A DNA stretch of 64,000 nucleotides from Guillardia theta CCMP2712 (Eukaryota > Protista > Cryptophyta): the NCBI RefSeq assembly GCF_000315625.1, contig NW_005434598.1:214809-278808 (forward strand), given 5' to 3'. The position numbers and the translations under genes are program-made. The notes beneath the pieces were generated by a model. That model had not been told where the DNA came from, did not search any database, and saw nothing but the letters and a program-made list of their open reading frames with translations. Below are positions 8,938-43,573 of the stretch, one piece after another. Positions within the stretch are counted from its first letter, which is position 1, and each line of letters starts with the position of its first letter.

Positions 8938-11324
8938 TCACATGTAGTACTCATATCCTTGGATGAGCTGCTTCATCCTTCTTCTGTACCTCTTGCAGTG
9001 CAAGTGATCTTCTTTGCAGACACTCTTGGTGCAGCAGCAGTTCCTGATAACAACACCAGAAATCAGCGAGGATTGCACTGAGTGGACTGGATAGACTGAC
9101 CTGCGACACAGCGGGCACTTCCATTCGCACTTGTCGGCTTCCTGCTGAGAGCGGAAAGAGAGAGGAGAGTTCAGATGATTCTTGCAGCATTTGTCACAGA
9201 ACATCTGCAAGACAACTCGATCAGCACAACACATCTGCACACACAACCTTCACGTGTCTGACCTGATCGCACTTTGGGTTCGTGCAAGTGAAGATTGAGC
9301 ATCGCTTCGGCGCGTGCTCACAGAAGTGACAGTTCTTGTTCTTAAGCTCCACGGGCTCACCAGCAGCCTTGGCACCATCCGTTTCATACTTCCTCTTCCT
9401 GCGCCGTCGGATTGCTCCTTCCCCTCCCCACTCCTCCGCCAAGTCTCCTTCTCCCTGGCTCGAGCTGTTCGCCTCCTCCTTGAGTGGCTCCTCAAACACT
9501 TCCCTGGCGTTGCTGTCTGCTGGGAGGGACGTCTTGGCGATCTCGATGACGCCCATGGGAGGCCTGCTGGGATCTGTGCTGGGATGGTGCTGGAGATGAA
9601 GCACCTGACAACGACGGGGTGAGGACAGCGGGGGGATGTTGGTGAGATGTACCTCGCTGCAGTTGAAGCCATGATCGATGTGGCAGTGGTAAGAGTTGCT
9701 CCAGTGAATGATGATCTCGCCTTGCTGCACGATTGTCTTGTGGAACGGAATCTCAAACCGGCGGAGAACCTGCGAGAGGAGGAGGGTGAGGGATCTTGAC
9801 ACGTGTAGGAGATGAAGAGAGTTGGAGGGGAAGAAAGAAAACGATAACAGGAAGGAGTGAAGCAGCATGGGAGGGAGGGAGGCAGGTAGGGAGGGAGGTA
9901 TGGATGGAGGAAGGGAGTAGGAGAGAGAAAAGGCAAGGACCAAGGCTGTTCCATCACACAGACGTACCACAGGGTCGATCAAACAGTCCCGGGAGATGGA
10001 AGAGAAAGGGCTCTGAGAAGACCCGAATGATGTTCTGCGAAATCAAATCAGCTTCGAGGTTTAGAGGAAGTCTGATACGCACTTGTTGATTTCTTGCGGG
10101 AGATTGTCTAACTTCTCCTTGTAGGCAGGTGGAACGACGTAGACCGTCTTGCTGGCTCCAAAGTGCAACAACAAGAGCGACTTGCTCTGATCAGATGAAC
10201 ATGTCCAACCTTCGGCCTGAAAGGATGACGAATGAGAAATGTGAACCAAAGACCCTGTCACATCAAGAGAAATTTCTTACAGCTCGGCTCATTCCCAAGG
10301 AGACCGAGTGGTGTTGTGCTTGACTTAGTTTCCCTCCAAGAAAGTTCCTTCCTCCTTCATCGAGCAGCGAGAAATCTTCATGGTGGGCGGTCTCAACCTC
10401 CTGCCCTATCGCCCCGACGTCCCTCCAGAATTCGATCTCGAGAGTCTTTCCATCCTCCCGCCACTCCTCATACTCCTCGCTCTTCTGCACGAGGGAGGAC
10501 TTGACGGTTGGAAAATCGCTAGTCTGCTGCTCTTGGCGCTTGATGGAGTACCAACCACACTCATGGTCGTCAAGGTAGACTCTGGACTGTCGACAGAACT
10601 TCCAACTGTCAAGCTTCGTTGCTCTGTGCTTGCTATTCTGCTCCAGCCAGCCAGTAGGAGGCACGATCTTGACAGCTCCATGAAACCTGCCCACAGCGTC
10701 GATCGATTTCAAAAATTCAGGAAGGTTGTTGAGTTCGGTGAACGAAGGCTTCAAGATTGGAACTTCAGTGACAGCAGGGACATGTAACATTGAGACATGC
10801 GCGTGATTTGCCTTCTTGATCACATTGACGTGCTCATGCTGCTCCTGCTCCTGCTGGTAGATGTTGTTGCTCGGTCTTGTAACGTTCTTCGAGCTGCTTG
10901 CTGCAGTGGGGGTCCATTGTTCAGAATACAGTCTGTTCATGTTGCAGAGGCTGTAGAGAGAGGGCTCGTCTTCGAAATGCTCTTCCTCCGCCTGATTGAA
11001 CTTCTCCCATCCCATCGTTGCGAGCGATGATGGACGCAGGACCAGAGAAGTCAGCGAGCTCAACGTCTCCTTGATCTCTTCGTCCGAGTGAGGCTCGTCG
11101 CAGAAGAGCTCGATGCCGAACTGACGTGATTTCGCATCATCCTGGTCCTCGATGTCTCGTTGAAACACGTCGTCCTCTTGCTGACTGTTGTCAAACTCGT
11201 AGTCGTATCGACAGACCTGCTCCAGCCCGTTCGACCAAGACTGTAGAAATTGCATTCCCGAAAGCGATTCTAATCTTTCGTACTCAATGTCAAGGTCCTT
11301 GTTAGGATTTTTCAAACGTGACAT
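8938..11324 (-). CDS. JmjN + JmjC (KDM4/KDM5-like, predicted inactive) protein with C-terminal zf-4CXXC_R1-like zinc finger; ~7 exons
   Basis: JmjN: VPILKPSFTELNNLPEFLKSIDAVGRFHGAVKIVPPTGW. JmjC: GMSRA|AEGWTCSSDQSKSLLLLHFGASKTVYVVPP and VQQGEIIIHWSNSYHCHIDHGFNCSE. Finger: CHFCEHAPKRCSIFTCTNPKCDQ|MFCDKCCKNHL...WKCPLCRR|NCCCTKSVC. Confidence 0.85.
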
Positions 11325-14828: not shown

Positions 14829-15865
14829 AATGTCCACCACCACCACAATCATCCACAACAACATCATTGTCAACAACAACAACAACATTACCACCACCAC
14901 TATCATCATTTCACCATCATCATCATCATCTCCATCGACATCTCTGCTATCATCTCATCATCGTCATTGCCTGCATCTTAGATTCATCCGCATCAGGATC
15001 GTCTTATACGCATCGCTCACCATGGCCTCTTCGAAATCTTCTCTATCTTTGCTGTCATTCTTTAGTCGCTGAATGTCCCGAAGAAACTTCCCAGCCATCG
15101 TGTTCACCCCCGCCGATTTTGCTTCCGCAGACAGAAAGTCCTCCTGCAAATCATGTCTCAATGAAAAGTAAGTTGGGGTTGAGGGGGAGGGAGAGGAGAG
15201 AGGAGAGGGAAGGAGGGAGGGAGGTGGGGAGCATGGGAAAGGGAGAAAGGGAGACGAGAGGGGGTAGAGGGAGGGAGGGAGGGAGGGAACAGGACCGAAA
15301 CCAGTTCTCAAGATTGAGGAAATCTTACATGGAGGTCAATACCATGCAAGAGCATTTGGAATCCCAGCCCTTGCTGCCCAGCCTGAAGCAGTTTGCTGCT
15401 GTCCCCAACATGAATATCTCCCTCAACAGCAATATCTGCAATCCCAATCTGGTTGCACAGGTTCTTTGGATGCCCTAGAGGAGCAGACATGCACAGCTTG
15501 AGGAAGCAGCATCGAGCTTCCACCTCCAGCCTCTGCACTTGTCCTCCTTGCACGCCTGGACCAACCTTGCTGAACTTCAGGTACCCAACTCTCGCATACT
15601 TGGCCTTGGTATGCGATGGAGCCTCCCTGTATGACACGTTGCCTGCCATGAGCTCGATCTTGGAAGGTATGAAATGCTCATGGGAGAGGATAGAGATGCG
15701 ATTCACAGCCACGACACCATTGAAGGCTAGGACTATCTCCTGCGGGAAGGAAGGAAACGGAGCAGAAACCCATCCTGTGCTGTGCGGCGTAGCATCGTGA
15801 AGGTTTGAAGGAGGAGAGCCGGTGGAGAAACTGTCACAGTGTACGACTGTGAAGGGAAGCCGCAT
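14099..15865 (-). CDS. CEP104-like protein (N-terminal jelly-roll domain + UVR-like coiled-coil repeats), apparently short
   Basis: MRLPFTVVHCDS...GWVSAPFPSFPQEIVL...ILSHEHFIPSKIEL...RVGYLKF...FLKLCM...NLCNQIGIADIAVEGD matches the CEP104 N-terminus, followed by three KxxAVExEDYxxAKxxKxEI-type repeats. Confidence 0.75.
14729..14828. repeat. (CAT)n microsatellite in intron
   Basis: Near-perfect catcat run. Confidence 0.95.
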
Positions 15866-16014
15866 CTGATCCCTCCCTCCACCTCCTCTTCCAGCCTCTA
15901 CTTTCAATCTGGTTTCTTAACTTGGCTCCTGATGAAAATGTTGACCCTCTTGATCTTGCAGATTATTCCTTGATCTCGTGCTCCCTCTTGTGCTCCCTCT
16001 GCTTCTACTTCCCT

Positions 16015-26875: not shown

Positions 26876-28105
26876 TCAGAACTCAGTACCCGGAGCGAGT
26901 GCCTCCTGATTGCTTTGTTTGAATTCCTGAAGCATATCAAATCAGCGCACCAGAGCCATCGAGAGAAGGTTGTCAGAAATATGGGTCCTACCGAGTACAA
27001 CGTGAATAACACATGAAGCGATTCTGTTATGTTGCTGTAGACAGGAATGTCGAGGATTGCACAAACAATACGCGCATAAGCGACAGTGTCAACGTTCAGA
27101 TCTGCCGTCATATCAGGAAGATGTTAATTTCCACAGCGACTGACCTGCAGAAGGCAGCAGGGCGCCAGCAAAAGCTTCTTCCACCTCAGGACTCCACATC
27201 TGCATCAGAGTCTCCACATCAGGCATCGGCTTGGTGTAGTGCACGTTGGGGGGAGGGTTGCTTCGGTGCAGCTCCGATATGCTCTGAATCCAATTCGTAA
27301 TCTTCTGAGGATGCTGTGCTGCGTTCTCAATGTAGGGGACAGTAGTCGGCTGAAGAGAGGCTTGGGTAGAGATGGCTCTCAGCTGCAGGTCAAGGACCGT
27401 CGGATCTGTCTGTTGAGCTGCTGGTTCATCAAGCACGGTAAGGCCGAGCGTGTCCTTCTTGCCATCAGGACGAGGAATCTTGAGGAAAGGATCAATCTCT
27501 CCTATCGCTGGTATGTACTCAGGGATGAAGGGTTTCAGCTTGGTCTCCAGCTCGATCGTCTGCGGTTTGTACCTGCCGATGTACTGGAACAGCTCTCTAA
27601 TCTCATCTGAGACTTGGAGGTTGGCATAGTCCATCGGGTTGTACCCTTGCATCTTGCCGTCCTGTTCCTGCTCGTCATCATCTTCAGACGTCGTATCTGA
27701 ATGTTCCTCATCGTCGTCGTCCTCTCCTGAAGCAGATCCAACCTGCATCTGCTCTTGCCTCGGCTGAGGAGCAGGGGCTTGTCGCGGCTCCACCTTCCTA
27801 GCTTCCTGCGCTTTTTGCGGATTTTGCGGAGGGGCATCTTCCTCCACAGATTCTGAGCTGCTCACATCAACAGCCTCGTCGAAGTGTTGGTTTTCAACAA
27901 CCTGCGATTTCCTTTTGCTGGGACTCGAGTCATCCCTTGATTCAAACTCGTCTCCAAACACCAGACTCTCTTCGCCTCCCTGCCCCTGTACAGGCTGCTC
28001 GTTGTCATCATCAGATGTCTGTGACTCCTCCTCGCCGTCAGGCACAGACTCGTCGTCAGAAACTTCCACCTCCTCATCATGCGGTGCATTGTCCACCTTC
28101 GACAT
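26876..28105 (-). CDS. IFT46: Intraflagellar transport protein 46
   Basis: Acidic N-terminus, then YNPMDYANLQVSDEIRELFQYIGRYKPQTIELETKLKPFIPEYIPAIGEIDPFLKIPRPD...LDEPAAQQTDPTVLDLQLR, MPDVETLMQMW and CAILDIPVY...ESLHVLFTLYS|EFK; two short 3' introns. Confidence 0.95.
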
Positions 28106-29679
28106 GATGAAAGGAAGTTCAGATCAAGTCAACTGAAGCGACGACACTGAAAATCTACTCCAGGTAAAAGCACAGTCACGTTATAGGCGCGCAACTTTTC
28201 TTTTCGTCAAGGAGGATTGAAACAGTTCGGTAGCTCTTGATATTCGTCGACAAGAGGCAAGAAAGGGAAGGAATGAAGAAAAAGTGAATATGAACAGGTT
28301 GTTGTTCAGTGTATGTAAGCGGAAACAGCAAAGGTAGAGGATAAGGAGCAGAATCAAGTCAGTTTCTACTGCACCATTGCACAATGGCCATAGCGCTGTT
28401 GGTGCCGCAGTAGAAGTTTTTCAGAAACGGTCACTCTACTTTTTCTTTTGAAAATGTCTCATTTATTCATTTCTTTGATTTGAAATTATACCCTAAAGGT
28501 ATGAATATTCTTTTGAATTTTGATATCACCGTGACCCTGAAAGAATTTTGCTTGTCCTCTGATGCTCAACCGATTCAAATGATAACTGTCAAGTAACGAT
28601 GGAAACGAATGTAACGAACATTTATTTAACGTATGTAACCGCTAATACAATGAAAGGAAGTAAATATGTTTTAAACTGAGTTATGTCTTGGTACTAAAAG
28701 GAAAGTAAATACTCTTTATATAATAATGGTACAAATACACATACAAGAAAAAACGAGAAAAAGTCTTTTGGGACTCAAGGCTTCAGGGTTGACGGTTCAG
28801 GTATGAAACATTCAGGTGAACCATTCTGAACTTTCCCCGAATATTTTCAAATAGGAGAATAAAGTTTGGATACATTATTGAAATATACTTAGAATACTAT
28901 TTAAAAATACTAAATGTTTTAACTTCCTGGTATCTATTTATAAATTAAATTATATATAAGAACATGGCTCTAAAAGTCCAGAGGATCGCTGGGCATATTT
29001 CGATGGTTAACTTGAAATATTGAAATTGTTTGTGGATACATATTATTAATTCAAGTTAATGAATGAAAATTGGAGGATAATTCCCAAAATAACCTCCTTG
29101 AAAGTCGCCATGGCGTTGTGCCATGCATGGAAACGAAGGGGCTGATAAGGAGAGGAAGGGGGGAGGAGGAGGATGCTTGAGCGAGGAGGAGTAAGAATGA
29201 AGGGTATCGAAGGGGAAGGGCAAAGACGATCAGAATGTGTGATCTCACAAGGTTTTGAATTAGAGATGGGCACAGGAAAAGGAATAGGGAGAGGATGTTG
29301 TGGTTGTGAAGTGGCTGTAAAAGGATGGTAGACTTGTTCTTCTGAATGAGTAACATTGTTTCTATCGTTAGATCATTTTCATTGAAGTTGGAAAGTTTGT
29401 ACAGAGATTATTCTCTTTGTGAAAACAAATAACACATGTCGGCAAGTATAGCAAACGCTGTGTAGTAGACTTTCACTCGTTGCCCATTGCTGTAAGCAAC
29501 TTTGAATAGCGTGGTAATTGTTCAATCTAGAATTCCGATAATCCAATCACACATGTCAGTGTCCTGTTGCAGAATGAAACACTTAAATTTCAATCTGCAG
29601 AAGTGAAGGTTGTCAGTGCTGGATTTATGAAAAGCTCTGCACGCTTGTAGAAGAACGAGTTGAAAATCAAGGAGGCATC

Positions 29680-30140
29680 ATGTCAGCAGATGAAAATGCT
29701 GCGATCCAGCAGGTAAACTAGATGATTCTTGCAGCCTCATGATTAAAATTGCTGTAGGAGTTGGATCAGGAAATGGAACGACTGTTCCAGCATTTTGAGC
29801 AGGTGGGCATTGGGCATTATTTTTCTTCTGACATCTCAAGAAGCTGTGCTGTAAGATCAGATATTGACATGTGATGCTAGGACGAAGAGAGGACAGCAAG
29901 GTTAGCTGCAGCACTAGAACAGGAGTCAACAGCTGCAGCGTTGCATTTTGCGCTATTCCCTCGCAAAACACGAGATGGAGGGTTGCAGCCAACGTGCAGG
30001 TGATCTTGGTTGATACTGAAGATAGAAGCTCTGATGGGATTATGACCATAGGGAACCTGTGGTGTCGATGATGGCGTTCGTTGTTGACATCTTCAGTCCC
30101 CATGATGGAAGGTAAGGTTACGATGATGGTGACTATAATG

Positions 30141-30181
<41 letters not shown>

Positions 30182-30436
30182 GTTCATTGTGATGATGAGA
30201 GGATATGAGTTGTTTTACTATGATTTGTTTTCCAGCATTGATCTCAGAGTTCTTTCTGAATGTTTCGAACCGACGTGCGAGGAGGTCAGAAAATTTCGTG
30301 CATGATAATGTAATCTTACAGCGAAAGTAACGAAATTGTTGGTGACAGGGAGAAGAAGGAATTGTTGGTCTATCATATCAATACAAAGATGACACTGGGG
30401 CAACTGTCCAGTTATCCAGAGGTGATGATGAGAAGG

Positions 30437-30472
<36 letters not shown>

Positions 30473-33327
30473 AACAGGAGGAGGAAAATATTAAGGTACT
30501 GATTCTGACTCCCAGGCAAAGTGAAAGATGCAAAGAGACAGTTTGCGCATCAAGTCAGTCTTTGGTCATGATCAGTCGCGACAAGAAGGTTGATTTGACA
30601 TGACAGGTCCAACTTCGCCTGTCACTCGCGTGCAACCCGAACATTTCAGTCAAGGTGGGATCCACTACACGATCTTGTTGTGTTCCCTTCAGTGCAAGAA
30701 TCAAAAAACTTGGGCCTTGTGATCAGCACCTGTGTGAAGTGATCAGCATCTGTGAAACAATTTTTCATAAGAGAAGTTTGGTTCTTCACAGATCCACTCT
30801 GTCTTCATGAGATTCTCAACGCAGTTCATTTTTAGTTTTGCTTCTGTCCTACACAGACAAATTGCTGTTCACTGTTGTTCCACACACCTTCGCTCGCTCT
30901 TTTCTTTGTTGAAGTGAGAGAAACAGAGAGATAGAGACAGAGAGACAGTGTGTTGTGTTTGTGTGTGTGTATCTTTGCCGCCAAGTACTCGCAATGCGAT
31001 TTCCTGCTTACAAAGTCTAAATGAATCTCTGTAGGTTTTCAAGACTGGTCGACTTCAAATTGCAGGTTGCAAGGTGAGGAAAATCTGATGCTTCTGAATC
31101 CTTTGCCTATCACGCCCGAAACCTGTCTTTGCTGATGCAACCTATTGCTAAGGGAGGAATGACTTGTTTCTTGATATCTTGACATGTCGTTCCAGGACGA
31201 GGGCACTTGCAACAAGATCGTTCGGCACGTGCTCAACTGTTTGAATTCGTGAGTGAACATGTCACAACATCTGCTCCTCATGCCATACCTGCTCTCGATG
31301 TTGTATGCTCCGCATGACTTCTAAGATCACTCGGATCGCTCAGTGTGATTACAAGAATGTATTGCTTCGATGATGTGGAAGGAAGATGATGTTGAACTAA
31401 TGATTGAGATTTGTTGTTCAAAAACTTTTTGTTTTTCCTCTATCTGTTTTTTTTTGTCTTCTTTTGATTGGTTTCTACTCTTTCCTGCATCTTCTGAGCT
31501 CGTTGACAGCATTCAAGCAACACCGCAAGGGGCGCGCGTGTTTGAACGGCACGTGTGTGAGCCTTCCGGTGAGTTGGTTGCCGGAGGCGAGCAGGGGAGA
31601 AAGTTGCAGGAATAGTAGAAAAGCGTGAAGGAGGGGAGAGAGAGGGAGGGCGAAGGAGGAGGAGGGCGGGAGAGGCGAGGAGGAGTTGATAGCCAAGGAG
31701 GCTAAAAACGTGTGCAGGCCAGCATGTCGCCATTCATGGACCCATCGACTATGATGCAGTGGTAAGAGAGGAGAGGGGAGGGGAGGAAGAGGAAGGGGAG
31801 GGATGCTGAGGTCTAATATGCGGGTGAAGGTGACGCCGGAGACCGTGAACATCAACTGTACCTTTGACGCGGGCTACTCGTTTGTTGGCTACACGCTTGA
31901 CCCCCTCGCTCTGAAGGAGGTTGGAGATGCGCACATGACGATGTCTTGTTATATCATCCTCTCTCCCTCCAAACAAGTGCAACAACACCATGACGAGTGT
32001 TTTACATGTGTTACATGTCTGATCATTATTCCTACGGCTACTCTGTTGACTTTGGTCTGCAGATTGTTGAGCAACAGCAGTACTCGACTTGCGTCAAATC
32101 AGTGGAATACACTCCTGAAAAGAGGTATAAGAGGAATGATCGAATTTGTGGAGAGGAAGAGGGAAAGAGGAAGAGCTTGTGATAGAGATGATGATGATGA
32201 CGTTGTCGTCGTTTGCAGTAGCAGTAGCAGTAGCAGTAGCAGTAGCAGTAGCAGTAGCAGTAGCAGTAGCAGTAGCAGTAGCAGTAGCAGTAGCAGTAGC
32301 AGTAGCAGTAGCAGTAGCAGTAGCAGTAGCAGTAGCAGTAGCAGTAGCAATAGCAGTAGCAGTAGCAGTAGCAATAGCAGTAGCGGTTGCTGTTGTTGTC
32401 CTTGAGCAGGAGGGAGGAGGAGCAGGAATAGGAGCAGGGGGAAGAGGAAGATGGAGGAGCAGGAGCAGGAGTAGGAGCAGGAGCAGGAGGATGGAGATGA
32501 CGTCGACGATGACGATTGTCTCTTCCAGATATGCGGGTCTGAAGATTCTGTTTGTTCCTCCGCAAGCAAGCAACTCAACGGGTGAGGACGTGAGGGGATG
32601 ATCTCGATACCTGACATGAACAAGATCCCAAGAATAAGAGAGAAGTTTTCATCGGCATCTTCCCTTCCTCCAAGACCGTCATCACTGGTTAACCTCTCCC
32701 CTTCACACTCCTCTCCTCCTCATCATCATTATCATCATCATCAGTATCATCATCATCATTGCTTCCATCCGTCCGCCCTCTTTCTTCTTCTCCTCTCTCT
32801 CATTTTGTTTTTTTCCTCTCAGGCGCAGTCAACTGGGCAGAGGTAGACGACGCGTACGACTTCGCCTCTCGGCTTCTTCTACAGGTGAGGGGTGGAGAAG
32901 AAAGGAGGAGGGGGAGAGGGAGAGGGAGAAGAGGAGGGCAGATGGAGGGATCGAAGACGAGCAGATGCGGGGGGGGGCAGGGAGGATAGGAGGAGAGTGT
33001 AGAGAGCAGAGCAGAGCAAAGGAAGGGTGCTTGTGTTGTCTGATTTCATTGTAGAATTTTGAAGCGATAAGAAAGCCAATGGACGATGCGTCTGCTAGGA
33101 GAGCCAGACAGGTTCCTCTTTCTCCTTTCTTCCTCCCACCTCCTCCTCCCTCCCTTGCCCCTCATTGCGCTGACTTTCTCTCCCCCCCTCTCTCCCTCTT
33201 CTCCTCCTCCAACGTAACTTTTGTGTTGCTTGTTTCTTGAATTTTTCTCTCTGTTTCCTTTCTCTGCTTCGTCTCCTACTCATCCTGACAATCTCCTTCA
33301 TTTTTGCAGCAGCAAAAGTACAACTGA
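29680..33327 (+). CDS. TATA-binding-protein-like (two TBP repeats), giant-virus (NCLDV)-type signatures, ~20 small exons; start codon tentative
   Basis: Phase-consistent GT-AG splicing gives EPVVSMMAFVVDIF..S|IDLRVLSECF...LSRG|KVKDAKRQFAHQ|VQLRLSLACNPNISVK|VFKTGRLQIAGCK|DEGTCNKIVRHVLNCL...VTPETVNINCTFDAGYSFVGYTLDPLALKE|IVE...VEYTPEKR|YAGLKILF...REVFIGIFPSSKTVITG|AVNWAEVDDAYDFASRLLLQ|NFEAIRKP. Confidence 0.8.
32215..32384. repeat. (AGTAGC)n hexamer microsatellite in intron of the TBP-like gene
   Basis: Long near-perfect hexamer run. Confidence 0.95.
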
Positions 33328-33786
33328 AGAACAAAGAAACAATCAAATTGAAAGGGAAGTATATGTCAACAAACAGGGAGGAAGTAGGACAAGAAAGCAA
33401 GAAAGAGAAGGAAGACAAAGAAAACATGCCAGGAGAAGTCAGCATGTTTGTCGTCTACATGCATGCTGCGGTCATGGTGTCCTACTTGAATCAGACACGA
33501 TGGTATCCGATAGAATGTTGTAAATTGTAATCGAAAGCAAAATTAAAGACAAGTGTAAATATCACCAACGGGGTTGAGAACAGCAACCAGCAGACCTTTA
33601 CTCTTCTCTTCTCTAACGCAATCGCTTTCGCTCCCCTGTCTCTCTCTCAACATCCCCTTGTTCTCTCTCATTGGTCCCCCCTCCTCTCCTCCACCTTCCT
33701 TCCATCTCCTACTCCCCTCTCCTCTCCTCTACCCTCTCCTCTCCTCCCTTTGCTCGCCTCCCCTCCCCCCATCCTCCTCCTCCCAC

Positions 33787-35013
33787 TCAAGACGCTGAGA
33801 AGCTTCCTGAGCATGGGATCACACAAACAATTGCATCCTTCACCCATCTCGTCGTCTCCTTCATCTCAGGGTTGAACATCATCAGCGTCTTCACTGTCGT
33901 CCTGAACTTCATTGCGAGACTTTCAACCGTCTCCTGCTCCTTCATCCTGTACGACGACCCCACTCGCACTGCCAGCTCCTCCTCCACTATCACGTTCGGA
34001 TCCGAGAGGACGGGGAAGAGCCGGGCTGCGTTGGCGTTCCATATGTGCCGCCATTGCGCTTCCATACCGCTCCTCCGCGCTAGCAGGAAGAGACTTTCTC
34101 CCTCCCGCAAACACACAACGCACTTCTCCACCTCCACCTTCACGCAGCTCGACACTGACCGCGTACTGGACTTGTCCTGGGCATGCGAGCAGAGCTCGAA
34201 GACGCTCCCTTCCTGCCCCTGCTGTGGCCTCCAGGACACGCATCTCTCGCAGGGAGGAGGAGCGAAGACTGCCGTGCCGGTGCTGGCAGCGAAGAGGGGA
34301 GAGAGCGAGGAGCTGGACGGGTCGGAAAGGTCGCTGGAGCAAGTCCCGTCCTCCGTGAAGGAAAGGTTGCTGAAGGAGAAGGAAATGTCGACGGAGTAGA
34401 GGTCCTTGACATCCTTAGCTCTAAAGCAAGCACGGTACAGGCATCCGACGTTGGCCATGGCAGTCGCAACCCCTGAAGCGACGGGAAGGAAGGAGATATC
34501 GGGAGGCTCGACAACGAGCTCGAAGCATCCGCTCTCCCTCTCGCAAGCTGCCTCCTCCTCCAGACTCGCAAGGAAGCATGTCCGGTATGTCCCCACCTGG
34601 TCGCTCCTCGGCTCCCAGCGGAACCTCCTCGTCACGGGGTTGCAGACTCCGTCTTGCCGCAAGCATCTCTGCTCTGAGAGTGACGCGCCATTAGGAATCC
34701 CCGGCTCCTCCAGCAGCAGGATGGAAGCGTTCCTGTCCTGCAACGGAATCTCCACAGTCGCATACACGTTCACCTCCACCATGGCGCCGACAACGACCGT
34801 TAGCCTCCCGCCCGTCATAAGCACTCGCTGCGGCCCTGGAACCGGTCGGCTCGCCAGCATGCCGCTGGGATCGGTGATAGTGCCGTGGACGCCGAGCATG
34901 GCCTCGAATGATCCCAAGGACACCTTGCAGGAGGAGGCAGCACATGGAGAAAGGCGATGACTTAGGAGGAGGAAGCAACAAGTGAAGACGGAGGACGATA
35001 ATAGTGATCTCAT
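33787..35013 (-). CDS. Secreted protein with Ig-like/putative-Ig repeats and two C-terminal LysM domains; single exon
   Basis: Signal peptide MRSLLSSSVFTCCFLLLSHRLSPCAA; repeated WxP...G..Y/F..C modules; LysM-like CLREGESLFLLARR...WRHIWNAN and YRMKEQETVESLAMKFRTTVKTLMMFNPEM...VCVIP. Confidence 0.8.
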   Translation of the reverse strand: MRSLLSSSVFTCCFLLLSHRLSPCAASSCKVSLGSFEAMLGVHGTITDPSGMLASRPVPGPQRVLMTGGRLTVVVGAMVEVNVYATVEIPLQDRNASILLLEEPGIPNGASLSEQRCLRQDGVCNPVTRRFRWEPRSDQVGTYRTCFLASLEEEAACERESGCFELVVEPPDISFLPVASGVATAMANVGCLYRACFRAKDVKDLYSVDISFSFSNLSFTEDGTCSSDLSDPSSSSLSPLFAASTGTAVFAPPPCERCVSWRPQQGQEGSVFELCSHAQDKSSTRSVSSCVKVEVEKCVVCLREGESLFLLARRSGMEAQWRHIWNANAARLFPVLSDPNVIVEEELAVRVGSSYRMKEQETVESLAMKFRTTVKTLMMFNPEMKETTRWVKDAIVCVIPCSGSFSAS

Positions 35014-36262
35014 ATTTTCTCTTGCCTTGGTATGAACACTGTTGAAGAGAAAATGATCAAAGTTTTCTAACTGTGATTCCGTTCAAACGGTTTCAAGCTG
35101 AGCTGCTCAGCGGCGGTCCACTGTAACTGAAAGTTCCTAAGACTACTGCTCAGTTGGTCTCCTTCATCACTTAGTACTCGCCCCGCGGTAGTGTCCTAGC
35201 CTAGTAGTCTCTTTCCTAGAGAGAGGTATCCGACTGTTCCTCAGCCTCCTTCCTCGTTGTTCTCACCGCGAACCCTCAGCAGTCACTCACTCAGTCAGTA
35301 GTAGAGCAGAGCAGTGGGTCATGTCAAACTTGTCAATTCAATGATTAGCCGCTCAACTGAAAGCACGCCCCCCCCCTCCGTTCGCCGGGCCCGATTCATC
35401 TGTGCGGCTGACTGAGTGCCGCGTGCCGCTGAGTCACGGGCCAGGATCAGTCACTGCCTCCGGCATCTCACGACTCAGAGTCCCTCCGGGCCCCCGGTGG
35501 CGGCCCAGTCACTCGGATCTGCTCCGTCGCCGGATCCGATCGGATCGCCCGGCCCGGCCCGTCATGGTCACCACTAGTACGCCGGCAGCACTGACAGTCA
35601 CTGAGTCACCCGTACGCCTCCTTCTCATCGCCCTCATATCCATCAGGTTATCCACCCTACCTTGCAGGTTCGTACCCCTAGGGAGACAAATTGCTAGAAT
35701 AAATCAAATATTGTTCAAAAATGTAAGTGTAATATTGAAAATTAAATAGTATTTTCTGAGTATTAATTTATTTTTATGACCCCTGCCCTGAGAAAGGTTG
35801 AGCACCGCCTTGTTAGTACCCCACCCCCCTTCCCTTCCTGTACCCCTACCCCCTTTCCAAACAGTCACTACCACCGGGTTTGTGGGGGTACCTTGCTAGG
35901 CTCTTTCCTCGGGCATGGCCTAAAGGCGCTTCGAGGAGAGGAGAGGAAGAGGAGGAGAGAGGAGGAGGAGGAGGAGGAGGAGACCAAGAGGCGAGAGGAA
36001 AGAGATAGGGAAGAGGAGGAGGAGCAGATTGAGGAGAACACACGGGAGAATCCGAATCCGACGTACAAGGGACCTACGAGATCGTTTCTAGCAGCCTTTC
36101 CAATGCAATGACAGAATTTCTCTCCGATTGATCAGAAGGCAGTTGCGATTCTTTAGACTCAAGAACCCTTTCGCAAAGAACTTACTGGGCAAGTGGTCAA
36201 CGGTGCTGATGTTGTGACATATGGCCGGACAAGATTTGTTGCGTTTCTCTACAGCAAACATC

Positions 36263-38435
36263 ATGAATGAACTTTTTCTCCTTCTGCAAGTTTTGTTACT
36301 CATTGGAACTCAACTGGCAACGGTGGAGAGTTTTCTCACTGCAGCTCCTTCTCTCCACCCAGTTGCTCAACACTTCTTTCCTGCAGCGAAAGGACCATCC
36401 TCCGCTCACATGGTGTGTCGTGCGAACGTCGGGACTCAGTTGGGCAACGGACAGTATGCTCGGGCTTTCCTTGCCTTCAAGTCTCATCGGAGTGCGATGG
36501 GACGATGGAGAATGGATGTATCGAAGTTGAAACTGTCTGAAGGAGGAGGAGGAGGAGAGGAGGAAGACACTGACATCGACATGGAGGTCAAGATCTACAC
36601 AGCGATCAGTAAGATCGATCGTTTAGAGTGGAACAAGTGCTGCGAGGAGGCTGCAGGGAAGGGCAAGGAGAATCCCTTCCTCGCGTGGGAGTTTCTGAAC
36701 GCCCTCGAGGAATCTGGATCGGCTTCAGGGGCTTCGGGCTGGGCCCCCCACCACCTTGTTGTGCATGACAAGCACAGCAGTCGCATCCTTGCTTGCGCTC
36801 CTGTGTACCTCAAGGGCCACAGCTATGGGGAGTATGTGTTCGACCATTCCTGGGCTAGAGCATACAGGACGTTCTCCAGCGACAACTACTACCCGAAGCT
36901 GCAGTGCTGCGTGCCTTTCACTCCTGTGATGGGGCCGAGGCTGATGGCGAGGGGCGAGACGGAGGAGGAGGCAAGGAGAGCGAGGAGGGCGCTGGCTCGG
37001 GGGATGGTGGAACTGTGTAGTAAGTACGGGCTGAGCAGTGCGCATGTGACATTTCCCACCAAGGAAGACTGGGAGCTGATGGGCAGGCAAGGGTTCCTGC
37101 TGCGGACGGGGATACAGTACCACTGGAGGAACGAAGGGTACCAGAGTTTCGACGAGTTCCTGATGCGGCTGAAGCAGTCGAGGAGAAAGAGCATCAGGCA
37201 GGAGAGGAACAAGGTGGCGAAGGCGGGGGTGAGGGTGAAGGCTCTGACGGGAGAAGAGATTGAGGAGAGGCATTGGGATGCGTTCTATCAGTTCTACCTC
37301 AATACGGTAGATGAGAAATGGGGGCAGGCTTACCTGAACCGAAAGTTCTTCACCCTGTTGGGAAGGGAAATGGCAAACAAGGTCTTGCTCGTGGTGGCGG
37401 AGGAGGAGGAGACTGGAGAGCTGGTGGCGGGAGCGCTGAACCTCATTGGAGGAGACTGCCTGTATGGCAGGAACTGGGGATGTAGCAAGAAGTACGACTC
37501 TTTGCACTTTGAGCTTTGCTACTACCAGGTTCTTCTCCTCTCCTCCTCTCCTCCTCCCCTCCTCCCCTCCTTTCCTCCTCCCCTCCTTTCCTCCTCCCCT
37601 CCTCTCCTCCTCTCCTCCTCTCCTTTGTTTCGATTCGTCCTCAAGTTTTCTTTCCTTCCCTGCATTTCCCTTTTTCCTCTCCCCCCTTCCCCTCCCCTTC
37701 CGCCTCTCTTTCCACTCTGATCGCTACTCGTCGCCTCCTCCAGGCCATCGATGCCGCCATCCGCATGGGGCTTCAACGGGTGGAGGCAGGAGCGCAGGGG
37801 GAGCACAAGATTTCCCGCGGTTACCTCCCGACCTTCACTTACAGCGCTCACTTCATACGCGTTCCCAACTTTCGCAATGCTGTGAACCAAGCGCTGGTTC
37901 AGGTTCCTCCCTCTCCTCTCAACCCCTTCCCTCCTTCGAATCTTCCCTTCCCTTGCTCCATCTCTCCCCCCTTTTCTCAGTTGCTCCCTCCCTCCTCTCC
38001 CTCCCTCCCTTCTCCCTCCGTCCCCTCCCTCCTTCCCCTCCCCCCCTCCCTGCCTCCCTGCCTCCCTCCTTCCCATCCCTCCCTCCCTCCCTCCTTTCCG
38101 TCCTAGGACCTTATATGATCGTTTGCGGCAGGAAAGGGATCAGATCATTTATGCGTCTGCCATGCTCACACTGCAAGAGTCGCCATACAAGGTGAACCAA
38201 CACCGCAGCTCATCCTCACCGTGCTGACTCTCCTTTCTCCCCTTCCTATCATCTTCTGCTGTTACTCCACCTCCACCTCCACCTCCATCCTCTGATTCTG
38301 TCCTCCTCACGCCTTGTCCTCCCCCCCTCCCTCTCACCCTTAGTTGTACTTCTACTTATCTGCTCCCTCGGATTTCAGGAAGGAGCCGAGCAGCATCTGG
38401 AGTCTCAAGGCATTCGCATTCAGAAATCTCAATGA
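36263..38435 (+). CDS. FemAB-like / DUF482 GNAT-fold (aminoacyl-transferase-like) protein, probably plastid-targeted; 4 exons
   Basis: NPFLAWEFLNALEESGSA, YLKGHSYGEYVFDHSWA, YYPKLQCCVPFTPVMGPRL, QYHWRNEGYQSFDEFL, LYGRNWG, LHFELCYYQ|AID, EAGAQGEHKISRGYLP. N-terminal signal ...LATVES|FLTAAP. Confidence 0.92.
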
Positions 38436-38610: not shown

Positions 38611-41600
38611 TCATTCAACCCAGAAGGTTTCCATGTCTCCCTTGCCTTTGATCTGCCGCACGCCTCGGCTGGTGATGCGAAACTCGCTCTCCCCTCCTTG
38701 ACTCTTGAGGAGATCAGCAGAAAACTTGGAGCAGTGGATGCGGCCAGCCTATTAAAATCATCACGATCTACAGAATTGAGAGGCAACCAACACGGCAAGA
38801 AGGAGAAGGAACATACAAAGCAGGACAACGGGGATCTTTTTGCCTACCTCGGAGTTTGACTCCATCCTAGAAGCTGTGTTCACTGTGTCTCCGAACAAGC
38901 AGTAGCGCAAGTTTCTGCTGCCTACCACGTTGGCCACGACAGGACCGGAGTGGAACCCGACACGGATCTGCACGTAGCCCTTGGAAGGATCGTCGCGGTC
39001 GATGAGGGTCTCGGACGCACACTGAACTGCGAGCTTTGCGAACTGAGCGATGCGGAGGGCGTGATCTTCCTTCTGATCCTCGACGAGGTTGGTCACTGCC
39101 ATGTAGGCGTCGCCGATGGTCTCAACTTTGAAGATCGCGTGGTCGTGTGTGATGTTATCGAATCGGGAGTAGAGACGGTCTAGCATGTCCGAGATCTTCT
39201 CAGGAGGGAGAGTCGAGCTGATGTCCGTGAAGCTGACGATGTCGGAGAAGAAGATGGTGACGCAGTCTCGGTGCTCGGGATACACCTTCTTGCCCGCCAT
39301 GAGAGTGTCTGCAATGTGCTTTGGGAACACGTCGTAGAGCATCGAAGTCACTCCGTTGTTGCTGCCAAACTCAAACTTGCGGACGATCTCACAGACCTGA
39401 GCATGTTGAACCATCTCAGAAGCGTAGGGGAAGAACGGCTGCGCGCTCGCTGAGAACATGCTGCGAAGAGCCTTGCAGATCTCTTTGAACTGGATCTTCT
39501 CGTTACGGAACAAGGCACGCGAGGCTTCGTTGAAGTTGTCGGAGAGTCCGAAGTAGAAATCATCATTCAAGTACTCGGCAAAATCAAAGTCCTTCTCGAT
39601 GGGAACTGGGATCACAGGCTTGCGTGTGCGGTACGCGTGCACAATGTGCATGATGACCTGGGGGTTTGTGAGCGTGTTGTCTGTCAACAGTACAACAAAG
39701 TTCTGAGCATTCTCCATGTGGCGCAGGAGGGAAGACATCTGAGCTTCTTCCTCTTCAAAGTAGGTGAATCCACGAGCAAAAGGGATGATCTCGTCAAAGA
39801 GCAGCTTCAAGATCCTTGCTGTGGCCCTGCCGTCTCCCTGGTCGAAGACGAGGTAGTTGGAGTAGAGCGATGGAGTATCGGAGGAAGGCATGAAAGTCCT
39901 CACTGCATCAGGTGTTGAAAGCCTCAGCTTGTACTCATTGGAGAAATCTCCGCAAGACAGCACGACATTCTTAGCCACGGCCTGCAGCTGAGACCACTGA
40001 GAAGCCTGTCGGGCGGACGGGTTGTAAACCATCCTTGGAAGCTCGAGGATCCACCTGATGACTGTCTCCACATCCTCAAAGGTCTTGTTCTGCTTGCAAG
40101 CTTGAGACACGTACACGAGTGTGTTCTCGTCGACGTGAAGATCCAGGTACTCCCTGAGGTTCTCGTTGCTGACGTTGAAACCAGCCCCTTCAATCTCAAC
40201 ACTCAGAATCGGGATGTTCTTATCAATCGCTGTGAACAGCTCACACAGGATGCCAGCACGAAACAGCACAGACTCGCTGAGAAGCACAAGGACACTTTTG
40301 GACTTGGAGACGCGATCGAGAAGGCTAGACTGGCTCTCAGAGTTGTCACTCTCGAGGAAGACCCGTGGGTTGTAGAGCTTGCCCTTGTTGTCTGATTCAT
40401 TCGAGACATCCTCCACTTGGACAAGTTTGTTCAGCATCAGCTTGATCAGACGAGCTGCCAGCCCAGACTCGTCCGTCCCGTGGCAAAGGAATGTCACATA
40501 AGGACAATTCGCGATCTCCTCTTGGAATTCGTTGAACAGAATACCATTGCCGGCGGATTTTACCGATTTTTCCAGAGCTAGATTCCTCTCGGCAAGCTCA
40601 GCAGCGTGGTCCATCAATCTGTTCTGAATCTGCACGTGGATCTCATCTTGATACAGCTTGAGCTCCGTTGCAGTCTCAGGATGCAACGTCATCCACTTCC
40701 AGATCCTCTTGACTGTGCAAAGCTCGAGAAACTTTGAAGTCTTCGCTTCGTCTTCTTCTTCGCTCTCAACTTCTCGATGCGTCTTGAAACTGAGAGTAGC
40801 AACAAGATTCCTCAAGTCTGTCCACCTTCGCCACGCGTTGTCTTCGTACTTCCTGTCTTTCTCCAAACTTGAGATCTGATCAATGACATCATCTGTTTTA
40901 GTGACTGACGCATATAGCGGAAAGATCTCTTGACAATACTGATCTTGCTCAGCCTGCGTCCTCCCGCACGTGCAGTCCTCAAGCTGATGCACGCGGAAAC
41001 CAAGCTCATGTGCAGCGCGTCCCGTGGAATCTATGCAAACGCTCGTGACGGCTCCACAAAGAACAACATCCGTCACTCGCTCTCGCTTGAGAAGCTCCTC
41101 TAGACAAGTTCCTGCAAACGCGTTCAGCCCTCGCTTCCCCGGGATCTGGATGATTCTGTCGCCGAACTGCGTGATCTCTGGGATGGTCTCGCTGCCTTTG
41201 TCTCCCATCTTGAAGGCCTGCACGTCCTTGATGACCTTGAGGATCCCGCTCGGCTCAAGGAGCTCGCTGTAGTCCTTGGTGAAGATGATCGGAGTCTCGA
41301 TGAAGAGCACGCTTGTGTCCTTGAGGCTGTTGATGATCTTGAGGGTGTTCCTTAGCACAGAGTCCGAGGATGCTTGGATGACCCCATGCAGCTTGCCATC
41401 CCTTCCGAAGTAATCTTTCTGGTATCCTATCAGCACAACGGCTGTGCGTGAAAACAGCGGCTGAGAACCAACCATGCTGTACGCTTTCTGCAAAAGAAGA
41501 TCAGAACAAGGAATGGGGGAACATACACCCTCCCAGCTTCAGCCTGCAAGATTTTGGACACAATGTCATCAGTCTTAGTGACTGACGCATATAGCGGAAA

Positions 41601-42164
41601 GATCTCATTGCAGTAGCATTCTTGCTCAGCCTGCGTCCTCCCGCACGTGCAGTCCTCAAGCTGATGCACGCGGAAACCAAGCCCATGTGCAGCGCGTCCC
41701 GTGGAATCTATGCAAACGCTCGTGACGGCTCCACAAAGAACAACATCCGTCACTCGCTCTCGCTTGAGAAGCTCCTCTAGACAAGTTCCTGCAAACGCGT
41801 TCAGCCCTCGCTTCCCCGGGATCTGGATGATTCTGTCGCCGAACTGCGTGATCTCTGGGATGGTCTCGCTGCCTTTGTCTCCCATCTTGAAGGCCTGCAC
41901 GTCCTTGATGACCTTGAGGATCCCGCTCGGCTCAAGGAGCTCGCTGTAGTCCTTGGTGAAGATGATCGGAGTCTCGATGAAGAGCACGCTTGTGTCCTTG
42001 AGGCTGTTGATGATCTTGAGGGTGTTCCTTAGCACAGAGTCCGAGGATGCTTGGATGACCCCATGCAGCTTGCCATCCCTTCCGAAGTAATCTTTCTGGT
42101 ATCCTATCAGCACAACGGCTGTGCGTGAAAACAGCGGCTGAGAACCAACCATGCTGTACGCTTT
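38611..42164 (-). CDS. Fusion protein: two isochorismatase-like (cysteine hydrolase) domains - two TIR-like domains - class III guanylate cyclase; 5' exon(s) upstream of 42164 uncertain
   Basis: Hydrolase fold: TAVVLIGYQKDYF..GKRGLNAF..GAVTSVCIDSTGRAA (x2, joined in frame across a 41-nt intron 41488-41528). TIR1: VTFLCHG..AARLIK..VFLESDN..SKSVLVLLSESVLFRAGILCELFTA..IPILSV. TIR2 degenerate. Cyclase: VTIFFSDIVSFT, FKVETIGDAYM, RYCLFGDTVNTASRMES; last exon AGRIHCS...IKGKGDMETFWVE*. Confidence 0.88.
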
Positions 42165-42190
42165 CTGCAAAAGAAGATCAGAACAAGGAA
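40890..42190. repeat. Direct tandem duplication (677-bp offset) of the isochorismatase exon including its splice acceptor
   Basis: ~41570-42190 is nearly identical to ~40893-41513; differences cluster at the coding 3' end (HGLG/HELG, ECYCNE/DQYCQE). Confidence 0.95.
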
Positions 42191-43573
42191 AACTAAAGCA
42201 ACCTAACACACAACTGCAGACAACAATGACTGCAACTAGTTTCACTGCATCCAAACAAATTGTTCTGCGATGGATTATTGTATCACAATGAAAAAGAAGA
42301 GTCAGACCATTGCTCTCTAAATCTGTTTTATACTTTGCCATTCATTTCTCTTCCTTGTCTATCTGTTCACCCCTCAAACCCTCTTCGACCATTCGCCTTT
42401 GCACTTCGTATGCCTTCTACTGTCTTCACTTCGTTTCCTCTCCTCTCTCCCTCTCATCTGCTATCGCTCGTCCTTTCCTTCTCTTGCTCATTAAACTCTC
42501 CTCGCTTCCTCCCTCCTCTCGATCCCCATCCCTGCTCTCCCTCCTCCTCACGGCCTACAGCAACATGGCGAGCGCCGTGAGGTTGGACTGTTTCGAAGGT
42601 TTTCACGGAAAGGTGGTACTATCCACTGGTCTTAGCTGAAACCAAAGAGTAAAATACTACAGATTTACTCTTATTGAGTAAACTTTAGTATTATATATTT
42701 TAGGTACTTGTGGATACTTTGTGGGTGTTTTCAAAACTTTTATCCCTAAATGTATATGCCCCCATGACCTGAACCTCACGCAGACGTCATTCTTTGTAGA
42801 TGGCTACCAAAATCTATGCTAATTTCGGGATACATATCGAAATAAGTGCAATTGATTCGAAATTTCCTTTGTAAGTGGTAGTAAAATAGTTCATATTTTC
42901 AAGTTTAAGGGTCAGATCACCTGAAAAGGAAGGGGTTAATCGACAAGACTCGCCAACTTGCGTTGGAAAGCACGGGGCAGCGGAGATTCTATCTGAAAAA
43001 AAGGGATGAGGGAAAATGTGGTCTTTTCGTTTTAGGCTTGACCTTCTTGCAGACCGGGTTCCGACCCTTTCCACTACCCCTGCCAAATCATGAACCCATC
43101 AAGCATGCCCAGATGATACCCCCCCAATAGACTAATAAATCACCGGTATATCCTACACCCCACCCCAGGATGAGGAAACTTACTATACACCACCCAGCCT
43201 GTATCAGGCTTTACCTTGTAACTATGTCCCTGTAACCCTACCCCCTTTGTACCCAGACACAATGACCCTACCAACTCTTTTTGAGATGATGGTGACATAC
43301 CCCCCCTTGTCCTCTTCAAAATCAGGTCGATACAACAGGTTCACAGCACAACATCTGCACCCCCACCCCCCCTTGTTGTACAACCACCCTACTGGAAGAT
43401 TACCTGTAACATGTGAGTGAAGCAGATGACGGTACATTGTAGCATAATGTGTGCTGGGATGGTACCTTTGACAGTACTGTGATTTTAGTCATATATCTTA
43501 TAATCTTATATAACGCTCTCACGGCACACCCTTTGAGTCACCACAGGAACTTGCTTGACGGTTAGACGGTTAT

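Follow-up and report, generated by a model that had tools for sequence, protein, structure and literature searches.

A spliced and expressed gene of the cryptophyte Guillardia theta encodes a TBP of giant-virus type from an old, probably domesticated family

The stretch of Guillardia theta CCMP2712 analysed here (contig NW_005434598.1, positions 214,809 to 278,808; hereafter the window, 64 kb in length) encodes on its forward strand a protein, here called paralog A, that is related to TBP (the protein that binds the TATA box). Its coding span, 29680..33327 (+), is a single frame of 354 amino acids (aa) split into 19 exons by 18 introns, with the start codon at 29680 and the stop codon at 33325-33327 (Table 1). 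The coding exons are 18-119 nt long (median 53), and all 18 introns have GT at the donor and AG at the acceptor in the spliced model. A first-pass annotation made from the sequence had proposed the same two ends, which match the transcript-based frame exactly. It had also proposed phase-consistent splicing of about 20 small exons: the splicing is borne out by transcript joints, the count is corrected to 19, and the motifs that it quoted are all present in the spliced frame.

The junctions predicted beforehand as a test of the gene are found in transcript contigs. Direct GT..AG joints were observed for 16 of the 18 introns, in five studies overall: 12 come from runs X1, X5, and X7 (three studies; contigs over 29300-32200) and 4 from runs X1, X5, X6, and X8 (four studies; contigs over 32360-33700). 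Intron 6, which adjoins a repeat, was deduced because the record coordinates of these contigs run on without a break; the deduction of intron 14, which spans a hexamer repeat, also uses a loose end that reads into exon 15. The runs are only guessed to be RNA, yet their contigs skip GT-AG intervals only, and several intron bins have zero depth. About 6% of the raw-read run X16 was sampled; this yielded two reads, without joints, and adds no evidence. Contig depth is higher for paralog B (described below) than for this gene, a difference left unused since depth cannot rank genes. The orthologs share their start methionine with the 354-aa frame; a query with exon 3 retrieved a Hanusia phi protein with an identical start, with cryptophyte proteins ranked below it, and a second Hanusia fragment differs from the 354-aa product at a few residues, which suggests a close relationship to Hanusia within the Guillardia group. 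The gene is real, spliced, and expressed.

Some further features of the transcript and its introns are worth recording. The 5' untranslated part (29599-29680) contains an upstream frame of 7 codons. One contig has 11 extra letters before 29599, a position preceded by an acceptor-like site, so that an upstream non-coding exon may exist. The hexamer repeat of intron 14 comprises about 28 copies (32215-32385), and shorter trinucleotide and hexamer repeats occur in introns 4, 6, and 16.

Table 1. Exons of the TBP-like gene and other features of the window. 'Joints' are direct joints in transcript contigs; 'ortholog model' is the predicted structure of an ortholog.
Feature	Coordinates	Strand	Content	Basis
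Exon 1	29599..29712	+	5' untranslated from 29599 or further upstream; start 29680, aa 1-11	contigs begin 29599
Exon 2	29758..29802	+	aa 12-26; predicted acidic N-terminal helix	joints, ortholog model
Exon 3	29881..29999	+	aa 27-66; N-terminal helices; largest coding exon	joints
Exon 4	30052..30111	+	lobe 1 first strand; M72 at first TATA-contacting Asn site	joints, alignment
Exon 5	30236..30284	+	lobe 1 first helix	joints, ortholog model
Exon 6	30349..30421	+	~30-aa lobe-1 insertion common to viral TBPs	3' junction deduced from record coordinates
Exon 7	30516..30553	+	basic stretch, F136, Q139	joints, alignment
Exon 8	30607..30654	+	up to K155	joints
Exon 9	31035..31073	+	F157, Q163, G166	joints, alignment
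Exon 10	31196..31248	+	lobe 1 long helix	joints, ortholog model
Exon 11	31510..31568	+	extended inter-lobe linker	joints, alignment
Exon 12	31718..31761	+	extended inter-lobe linker	joints, alignment
Exon 13	31830..31919	+	lobe 2 first strand; N227, N229, F232	joints, alignment
Exon 14	32063..32124	+	stirrup region T267, E269	3' junction deduced from record coordinates and loose end
Exon 15	32529..32581	+	Y272	joints, alignment
Exon 16	32625..32687	+	F301, T309	joints, alignment
Exon 17	32823..32884	+	lobe 2 last helix, Y321	joints, alignment
Exon 18	33055..33111	+	basic C-terminal tail begins	joints
Exon 19	33310..33553	+	last 5 codons, stop 33325-33327, 3' untranslated to at least 33553	joints
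JmjN/JmjC demethylase	9221-11324	-	ordinary host gene	
CEP104	15308-15916	-	ordinary host gene	
IFT46	27113-28123	-	ordinary host gene	
LysM frame	33787-35082	-		
FemAB-like/GNAT frame	36218-37720	+	500 aa, uninterrupted	E 8e-120
Isochorismatase-TIR-cyclase frame	38761-41538	-	925 aa, uninterrupted; isochorismatase, TIR (TIR_2/ThsB-like), and adenylate/guanylate cyclase domains	
Second isochorismatase frame	41430-42341	-	precedes the 925-aa frame	

We modelled the structure of the ortholog P0007, which is 87% identical to the 354-aa product, with AlphaFold2 and an alignment of 53 sequences. The model (mean predicted local distance difference test score, pLDDT, 88.8; predicted template-modelling score, pTM, 0.77) shows three N-terminal helices followed by two TBP lobes, of which lobe 1 carries an inserted hairpin, and has a long linker. 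The fold match to TBP that the first-pass annotation had put forward as a test is seen both in this model and in Pfam. Foldseek against the PDB gave 44 matches at E<=0.001, headed by TBPs (TM-score by query 0.35-0.42, identity 13-17%), and the Pfam TBP family (PF00352) scores above cut-off over two stretches in 4/4 family proteins. Against BFVD, the TM-scores by query are 0.55 for ChoanoV1, 0.53 for a marseillevirus, and 0.52 for Terrestrivirus; E-values cannot be compared between the two libraries, and a bias of the model toward a viral shape may come from the viral sequences in its alignment. A profile of the family matched 35 PDB sequences, all of them TBPs or TBP fusions. In other searches, a single ortholog barely found TBP among the PDB sequences (E 0.089), single exons had no match in Pfam, and self-BLAST of the 354-aa product found no internal repeat. 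The predicted structure is a two-lobed TBP saddle.

Outside its own family, the closest relatives of the protein are not canonical TBPs. A profile of 27 paralog A and B proteins, searched against 1.84 billion representative proteins, returned 298 matches; among the best 150 of these, 90 scored best with the family, 60 with the viral type, and none with canonical TBP. Viral-type matches could be traced to contigs of IMG/VR and to bins of giant viruses (of 601 pattern matches, 419 were confirmed and 80 were kept), and a Nucleocytoviricota capsid gene was present in all four viral records tested. All 30 matches in Atlas, which uses language-model features, are clusters of TBPs, of which the three displayed are 94-100% viral. 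Beyond the family, then, it is the TBP-like proteins of Nucleocytoviricota that come nearest. The first-pass annotation had proposed this likeness, and it holds by profile search, language-model features, Foldseek, trees, and shared residues. Viral-type TBPs are reported from 107 viral genomes (PMC7221094). Mirusviruses also carry TBP, together with many introns (PMC10132985, PMC12768974), and no row of our comparison set was identified as mirusviral. One IMG/VR contig of 29.5 kb encodes a divergent TBP of the canonical eukaryotic type (L198, 2344-2901, minus strand) and may belong to another virus group, e.g. mirusviruses.

The kinship can be followed to single residues, whose equivalences were taken from sequence alignment and whose roles, except where a source is given, are those assigned in yeast-style TBP. 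The aromatic set that the first-pass annotation had read at the DNA-intercalating positions is recovered by alignment: F136, F157, and F301 are kept, and the third residue is a tyrosine (Y272). So is the loss of the first TATA-contacting Asn, whose site holds M72. The second Asn, in lobe 2, is kept as N227, and the central Val is replaced by N229. In the stirrup, T267 and E269 stand where 24/24 canonical-type rows have Glu/Glu, so that one TFIIB-binding Glu is lost. The protein consequently lacks the complete sets that characterise canonical eukaryotic TBP, i.e., the paired Asn, the central Val pair, the four Phe, and the two stirrup Glu. It shares with canonical eukaryotic and archaeal TBPs the fold, three of the four intercalating Phe, the lobe-2 Asn, and a lobe-2 Thr-Gly motif, and differs from them in its low structural identity and in about 90 extra core residues, besides the replacements just listed. 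The Phe at position L5.1 of both lobes (F157 and F301) is invariant in 18/18 family rows; it is kept in 90% of viral lobes, and a Phe-to-Tyr change affects TATA binding (PMC7221094).

What the protein shares with the TBP-like proteins of Nucleocytoviricota (Mimiviridae/Imitervirales entries named 'TFIID/TATA-box binding protein', e.g. ChoanoV1 A0A5B8IQX1 and Terrestrivirus A0A3G4ZLQ9) is more specific than the two-lobe fold. Both have a lobe-1 insertion with a basic stretch before the first Phe and a Gln three residues after it, a Lys and a Gln in strands 4-5, and Ile-Asn-x-x-Phe in lobe 2; in both the first Asn is lost and the TFIIB stirrup altered (PMC7221094). The corresponding signatures, which were defined from our own alignment, are frequent in viral-type rows (Q139 in 24/26, K155 in 26/26, Q163 in 24/26, N229 in 23/26, F232 in 21/26, and Y321 in 23/26) and, like Tyr/His at 272, nearly absent from the 24 canonical-type rows. 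Counted from the first strand, the first Phe comes after 61-67 aa in paralogs A and B, a median of 60 aa in viral-type rows, and 23-33 aa in canonical-type rows. The differences lie elsewhere: the algal gene is chromosomal, has 18 spliceosomal introns, stands among ordinary algal genes, and belongs to a family with several paralogs, and its protein has an acidic helical N-terminal extension and is not known to have a cognate viral TFIIB. Furthermore, two cell-like residues that are mostly missing from viruses, the Asn of lobe 2 (N227) and one Glu of the stirrup (E269), are retained by paralogs A and B; in paralog C both Asn positions show the viral state (T, M).

Phylogenetic analyses separate the family from cellular TBP. 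A first tree, built on 73 rows and 181 columns after 20 of 93 rows had been dropped (long inserts, near-copies, and one partial sequence), puts the family and the viral rows on one side of a branch with 100/100 support and gives 97/95 to the family together with three eukaryote-like proteins (P0118, P0125, P0181). Two mixture-model trees of 53 rows, the second of which restores nine long-insert rows and one other absent from the first, show the same main split, with a value of 100 in the Shimodaira-Hasegawa-like approximate likelihood ratio test (SH-aLRT) for the family plus viruses. The family forms one clade with an SH-aLRT of 96 in one of these trees and 40 in the other. The eukaryotic set gathers plant, nematode, mite, and brown-algal TBPs plus further rows, some possibly viral. 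A clade of the family with eukaryotic TBP is rejected by the approximately unbiased test (p-AU 1.5e-6, and 0.0055 under a site-heterogeneous model), and the nesting among cellular TBPs that the first-pass annotation had named as an outcome contrary to its proposal did not occur. Animals (TRF2/TBPL1, TBPL2) and dinoflagellates (TLF) keep a second TBP-fold factor beside TBP or in its place, with altered residues on the DNA side and a presumed role at other promoters; these arose by duplication of cellular TBP, whereas the algal family groups with viral TBPs.

Could the family be a fast-evolving copy of canonical TBP drawn to the viral rows by long-branch attraction? The branch between the cellular and viral types is long (1.3-1.9 changes per site), and the trees use only 172-181 columns, which leaves room for such an artefact. 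Against it, the rejection stands under the site-heterogeneous model too, and discrete characters agree with the trees, including the lobe-1 insertion, which lies outside the tree columns. Nor does composition explain the viral likeness, because the algal genes are GC-balanced and most viral rows are AT-rich. We consider this explanation largely refuted and its probability very small.

The gene is one of several paralogs kept across cryptophytes, not a one-off insertion. The paralog A group unites the 354-aa product with proteins from Rhodomonas, Hemiselmis, and transcript sets, at 84-87% identity. Paralog B, 74-78% identical to the 354-aa product, includes, at 74-77%, G. theta GUITHDRAFT_114666 and a Geminigera protein, and a second transcript in the same runs has loose ends that read as paralog B. 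Identity to an A ortholog falls to 42-46% in paralog C (Baffinella, Proteomonas) and to 25% in paralog D (Proteomonas), which makes at least four paralog groups. The non-synonymous divergence (dN) is 0.11-0.26, with synonymous sites saturated in 5/5 ortholog or paralog pairs, and 171 columns are invariant across the 27 A and B proteins; these sequence comparisons indicate strong purifying selection on the family. Existing database labels of its members are 'hypothetical', 'uncharacterized', or an automatic TBP. Nowhere in the literature searched did we meet a viral-type TBP described from cryptophytes or from cells of any kind, with the reservation that supplements of large virus-host gene-transfer surveys may list such genes; the supplement files searched of PMC7221094, PMC6672047, and PMC8138875 held no cryptophyte TBP entry.

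Three other eukaryote-like or GC-rich viral-type TBPs were met in these searches: P0187 falls among the viral rows in the tree, P0243 is a long unplaced branch, and P0197 is partial. The long forms of paralog C (P0116, P0119, P0166, P0245, P0300) have a conserved N-terminal island of three helices (pLDDT 74-90), followed by a Gln-rich region and then the viral-type TBP fold. The 13 best Foldseek matches of the island are all HMG boxes, none at E<=0.001, and its HMG match in Atlas is 0.84. We take this HMG-box-like island as a lead toward a role in transcription rather than as a finding.

The number of introns varies widely between orthologous loci: none in L083-L087, two in L089, six in L092, at least seven in L098/L100, and 18 here. 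Among eight aligned loci, several of them partial, at most four of the intron positions of the 354-aa gene (26, 85, 155, and 220) were matched. Two of the intronless orthologs, L083 (455-3033) and L087 (1982-5054), stand head-to-head with the gene of mitochondrial ribosomal protein L46, which shows that these copies are cellular. They come from two distinct metagenome contigs of eukaryote-type DNA that share their downstream synteny, and this setting rules out that the intronless orthologs are viral.

These results bear on the direction of transfer. The viral type spans many virus families (from the Foldseek matches in BFVD), and the named cellular members are only cryptophytes in the records examined; since, in addition, the introns look lineage-specific, capture from a virus is favoured. 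Our trees do not separate the two origins that the first-pass annotation had offered, a domesticated viral gene or a cellular paralog borrowed by viruses. The family is an old cellular family of giant-virus-type TBPs with several paralogs, and has probably been domesticated. Our preferred reading, to which we give a probability of about 0.58, is that this expressed nuclear gene encodes a giant-virus-type TBP, that an early giant virus was its source and the capture preceded the diversification of cryptophytes, and that the protein bends promoter DNA in the host nucleus to serve a subset of genes.

Under this preferred reading, capture would have been followed by gene duplication and by separate intron gain in different lineages. 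The protein would enter the host nucleus, as suggested by its basic tail (4-8 basic residues in 16, in 16/16 A-type proteins checked) and by the lack of a hydrophobic or signal-peptide-like N-terminus in A-type proteins. Periplastid targeting was also considered and is disfavoured for want of a hydrophobic N-terminus. The residues suggest that the protein could bind the minor groove and bend DNA through F136, F157, Y272, and F301. Changes at the centre of the saddle, with M72 in place of Asn, N229 in place of Val, and K155 and Q163 in place of hydrophobic residues, may lead it to read something other than a plain TATA box. With one of the two stirrup glutamates lost, it might depend on some partner in place of the usual TFIIB contact to bring in the polymerase, and viral TBPs are themselves considered unlikely to use host TFIIB or host regulators (PMC7221094). 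Its acidic N-terminal helices (12 acidic and 3 basic residues in the first 50) could shield the DNA face or recruit a partner, and the whole would work beside canonical TBP. A partial parallel is the TBP/TFIIB-like pair of poxvirus VITF-3 (PDB 8p0j; weak fold match, E 3e-3); this viral factor has a TBP fold and bends AT-rich promoter DNA, with low specificity for the bases (PMC12917281). VITF-3 intercalates isoleucines and works with the viral polymerase (PMC12917281), whereas the algal protein keeps aromatics and is encoded by the host genome.

Several observations weigh against capture or against this role, or limit the evidence for viral kinship. The 354-aa product scores 66 bits with a viral profile and 27-28 bits with archaeal and eukaryotic profiles, and a family-only profile gives 39-96 bits for 75 viral proteins and 5-38.5 bits for 58 canonical-type TBPs, but the viral and family profile scores are partly circular because the viral set was gathered from the family's own matches. 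The Atlas recognition value (1730) is below the level of strong scores, and viruses of pitho-, marseille-, and asfar-type are thinly sampled or unlabelled in the comparison set. IMG/VR scans with the single proteins P0081 and P0214 found no relative, and a deep alignment found eight loci there at 22-26% identity, none of them a close viral relative. In the best trees the family is sister to all sampled viral rows with weak support (81/81, and SH-aLRT 86), a position that the other mixture-model tree does not resolve, and since it lies beside rather than inside the sampled viruses, no donor lineage is identified. It may also predate cryptophytes, because P0118, P0125, and P0181 join it. The intron comparison has no control in the ordinary turnover of cryptophyte gene introns. 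Finally, the protein core is net acidic (26 K+R versus 32 D+E), which does not favour strong DNA binding alone.

Part of this evidence fits an ancient cellular TBP paralog, lost in most eukaryotes, that would still be an alternative nuclear promoter factor and from whose family or stem giant viruses took their TBP. The sister position in the best trees, the great age implied by the deep A/B, C, and D groups and the three eukaryote-like proteins, the lack of a close viral relative, and the N227 and E269 of paralogs A and B are all in line with it. Yet a placement of the family inside viral diversity is not rejected (p-AU 0.34 and 0.43), a long outgroup branch and AT-rich viral rows can draw the viruses together, and an ancient paralog whose named cellular members are all cryptophytes would need many losses. 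Moreover, N227 may be a later return, since paralog C is virus-like at each of the two Asn sites. We regard an ancient paralog as unlikely, if far from negligible.

Conservation at the level of a housekeeping gene raises a further question, namely whether the viral-type proteins took over the general role of TBP in the host nucleus, with canonical TBP lost or marginal. The invariant columns, the expression of paralogs A and B in all contig sets where a match is visible, the L5.1 phenylalanines kept in both lobes, and the head-to-head neighbour of two intronless orthologs, a gene for a mitochondrial ribosomal protein, would suit such a takeover. The surfaces of the stirrup and of lobe 1 are non-canonical, though, and TFIID subunits, which would need the canonical TBP surface, are present: G. 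theta appears 11 times in the supplementary tree of TBP-associated factors (TAFs) of PMC6672047, which makes coexistence with canonical TBP likelier than replacement. The same source states that all eukaryotes have a TBP gene (PMC6672047). A takeover therefore seems improbable.

An antiviral use is more improbable still; the protein would act as a decoy or dominant-negative TBP on giant-virus promoters or TFIIB, or drive resident polinton-like elements. Defence genes usually change fast, unlike this family with its signs of strong purifying selection, and it is only about 20-25% identical to present-day viral TBPs and is transcribed in apparently ordinary culture data sets. What speaks for such a use is the abundance of polinton-like viruses in cryptophytes (PMC12220804), the existence of giant viruses of cryptophytes (PMC10960955), and the description of viral TBP and TFIIB as an orthogonal pair (PMC7221094).

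The genes around the locus are of host type: IFT46, CEP104, a JmjN/JmjC protein, a LysM protein, a FemAB-like protein, and an isochorismatase-TIR-cyclase. Of 103 long open reading frames (ORFs), 53 were scanned and none matched a viral hallmark family, a survey that can miss small-exon genes. A tblastn search with 966 ORFs from giant-virus loci gave no matches in the window at E 1e-5, including those of two viral TFIIB loci, and no canonical TBP lies within the window. The locus resembles a giant endogenous viral element in being a giant-virus-type gene in an algal genome, and differs in that the gene is single, with no viral neighbours found and hence no cluster of viral hallmarks around it, conserved across genera under purifying selection, intron-rich, and transcribed. 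The host-type flanks and the absence of family members from IMG/VR are not those of a gene encoded by a virus. Beyond the TBP gene, the window includes a FemAB-like/GNAT frame of a bacterial-type family, uninterrupted in an otherwise intron-dense region, and the 925-aa isochorismatase-TIR-cyclase frame, whose domains suggest a signalling or immune-type protein.

TBP ranks with the most conserved components of the eukaryotic transcription machinery, and the extra copies known arise from duplication of the cell's own gene. A more far-reaching version of the capture reading, which we hold as a tentative possibility, is a second, virus-derived initiation system. Several domesticated viral-type TBPs, one of them in an HMG-box-like/Gln-rich fusion, would act on a promoter element of their own, possibly together with a TFIIB of viral type; normal growth would depend on this system, which in the extreme case would replace canonical TBP. 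If capture is correct, a virus would have contributed to the core initiation machinery of a cell, and its contribution would have been kept throughout the history of an algal class and expanded into paralogs. Alternatively, viral TBP may have come from a source of which the family is a surviving relative in cells. Each of these origins bears on where the transcription apparatus of giant viruses came from, and G. theta would offer a culturable host in which to study a giant-virus-type TBP, its DNA element, and its partners.

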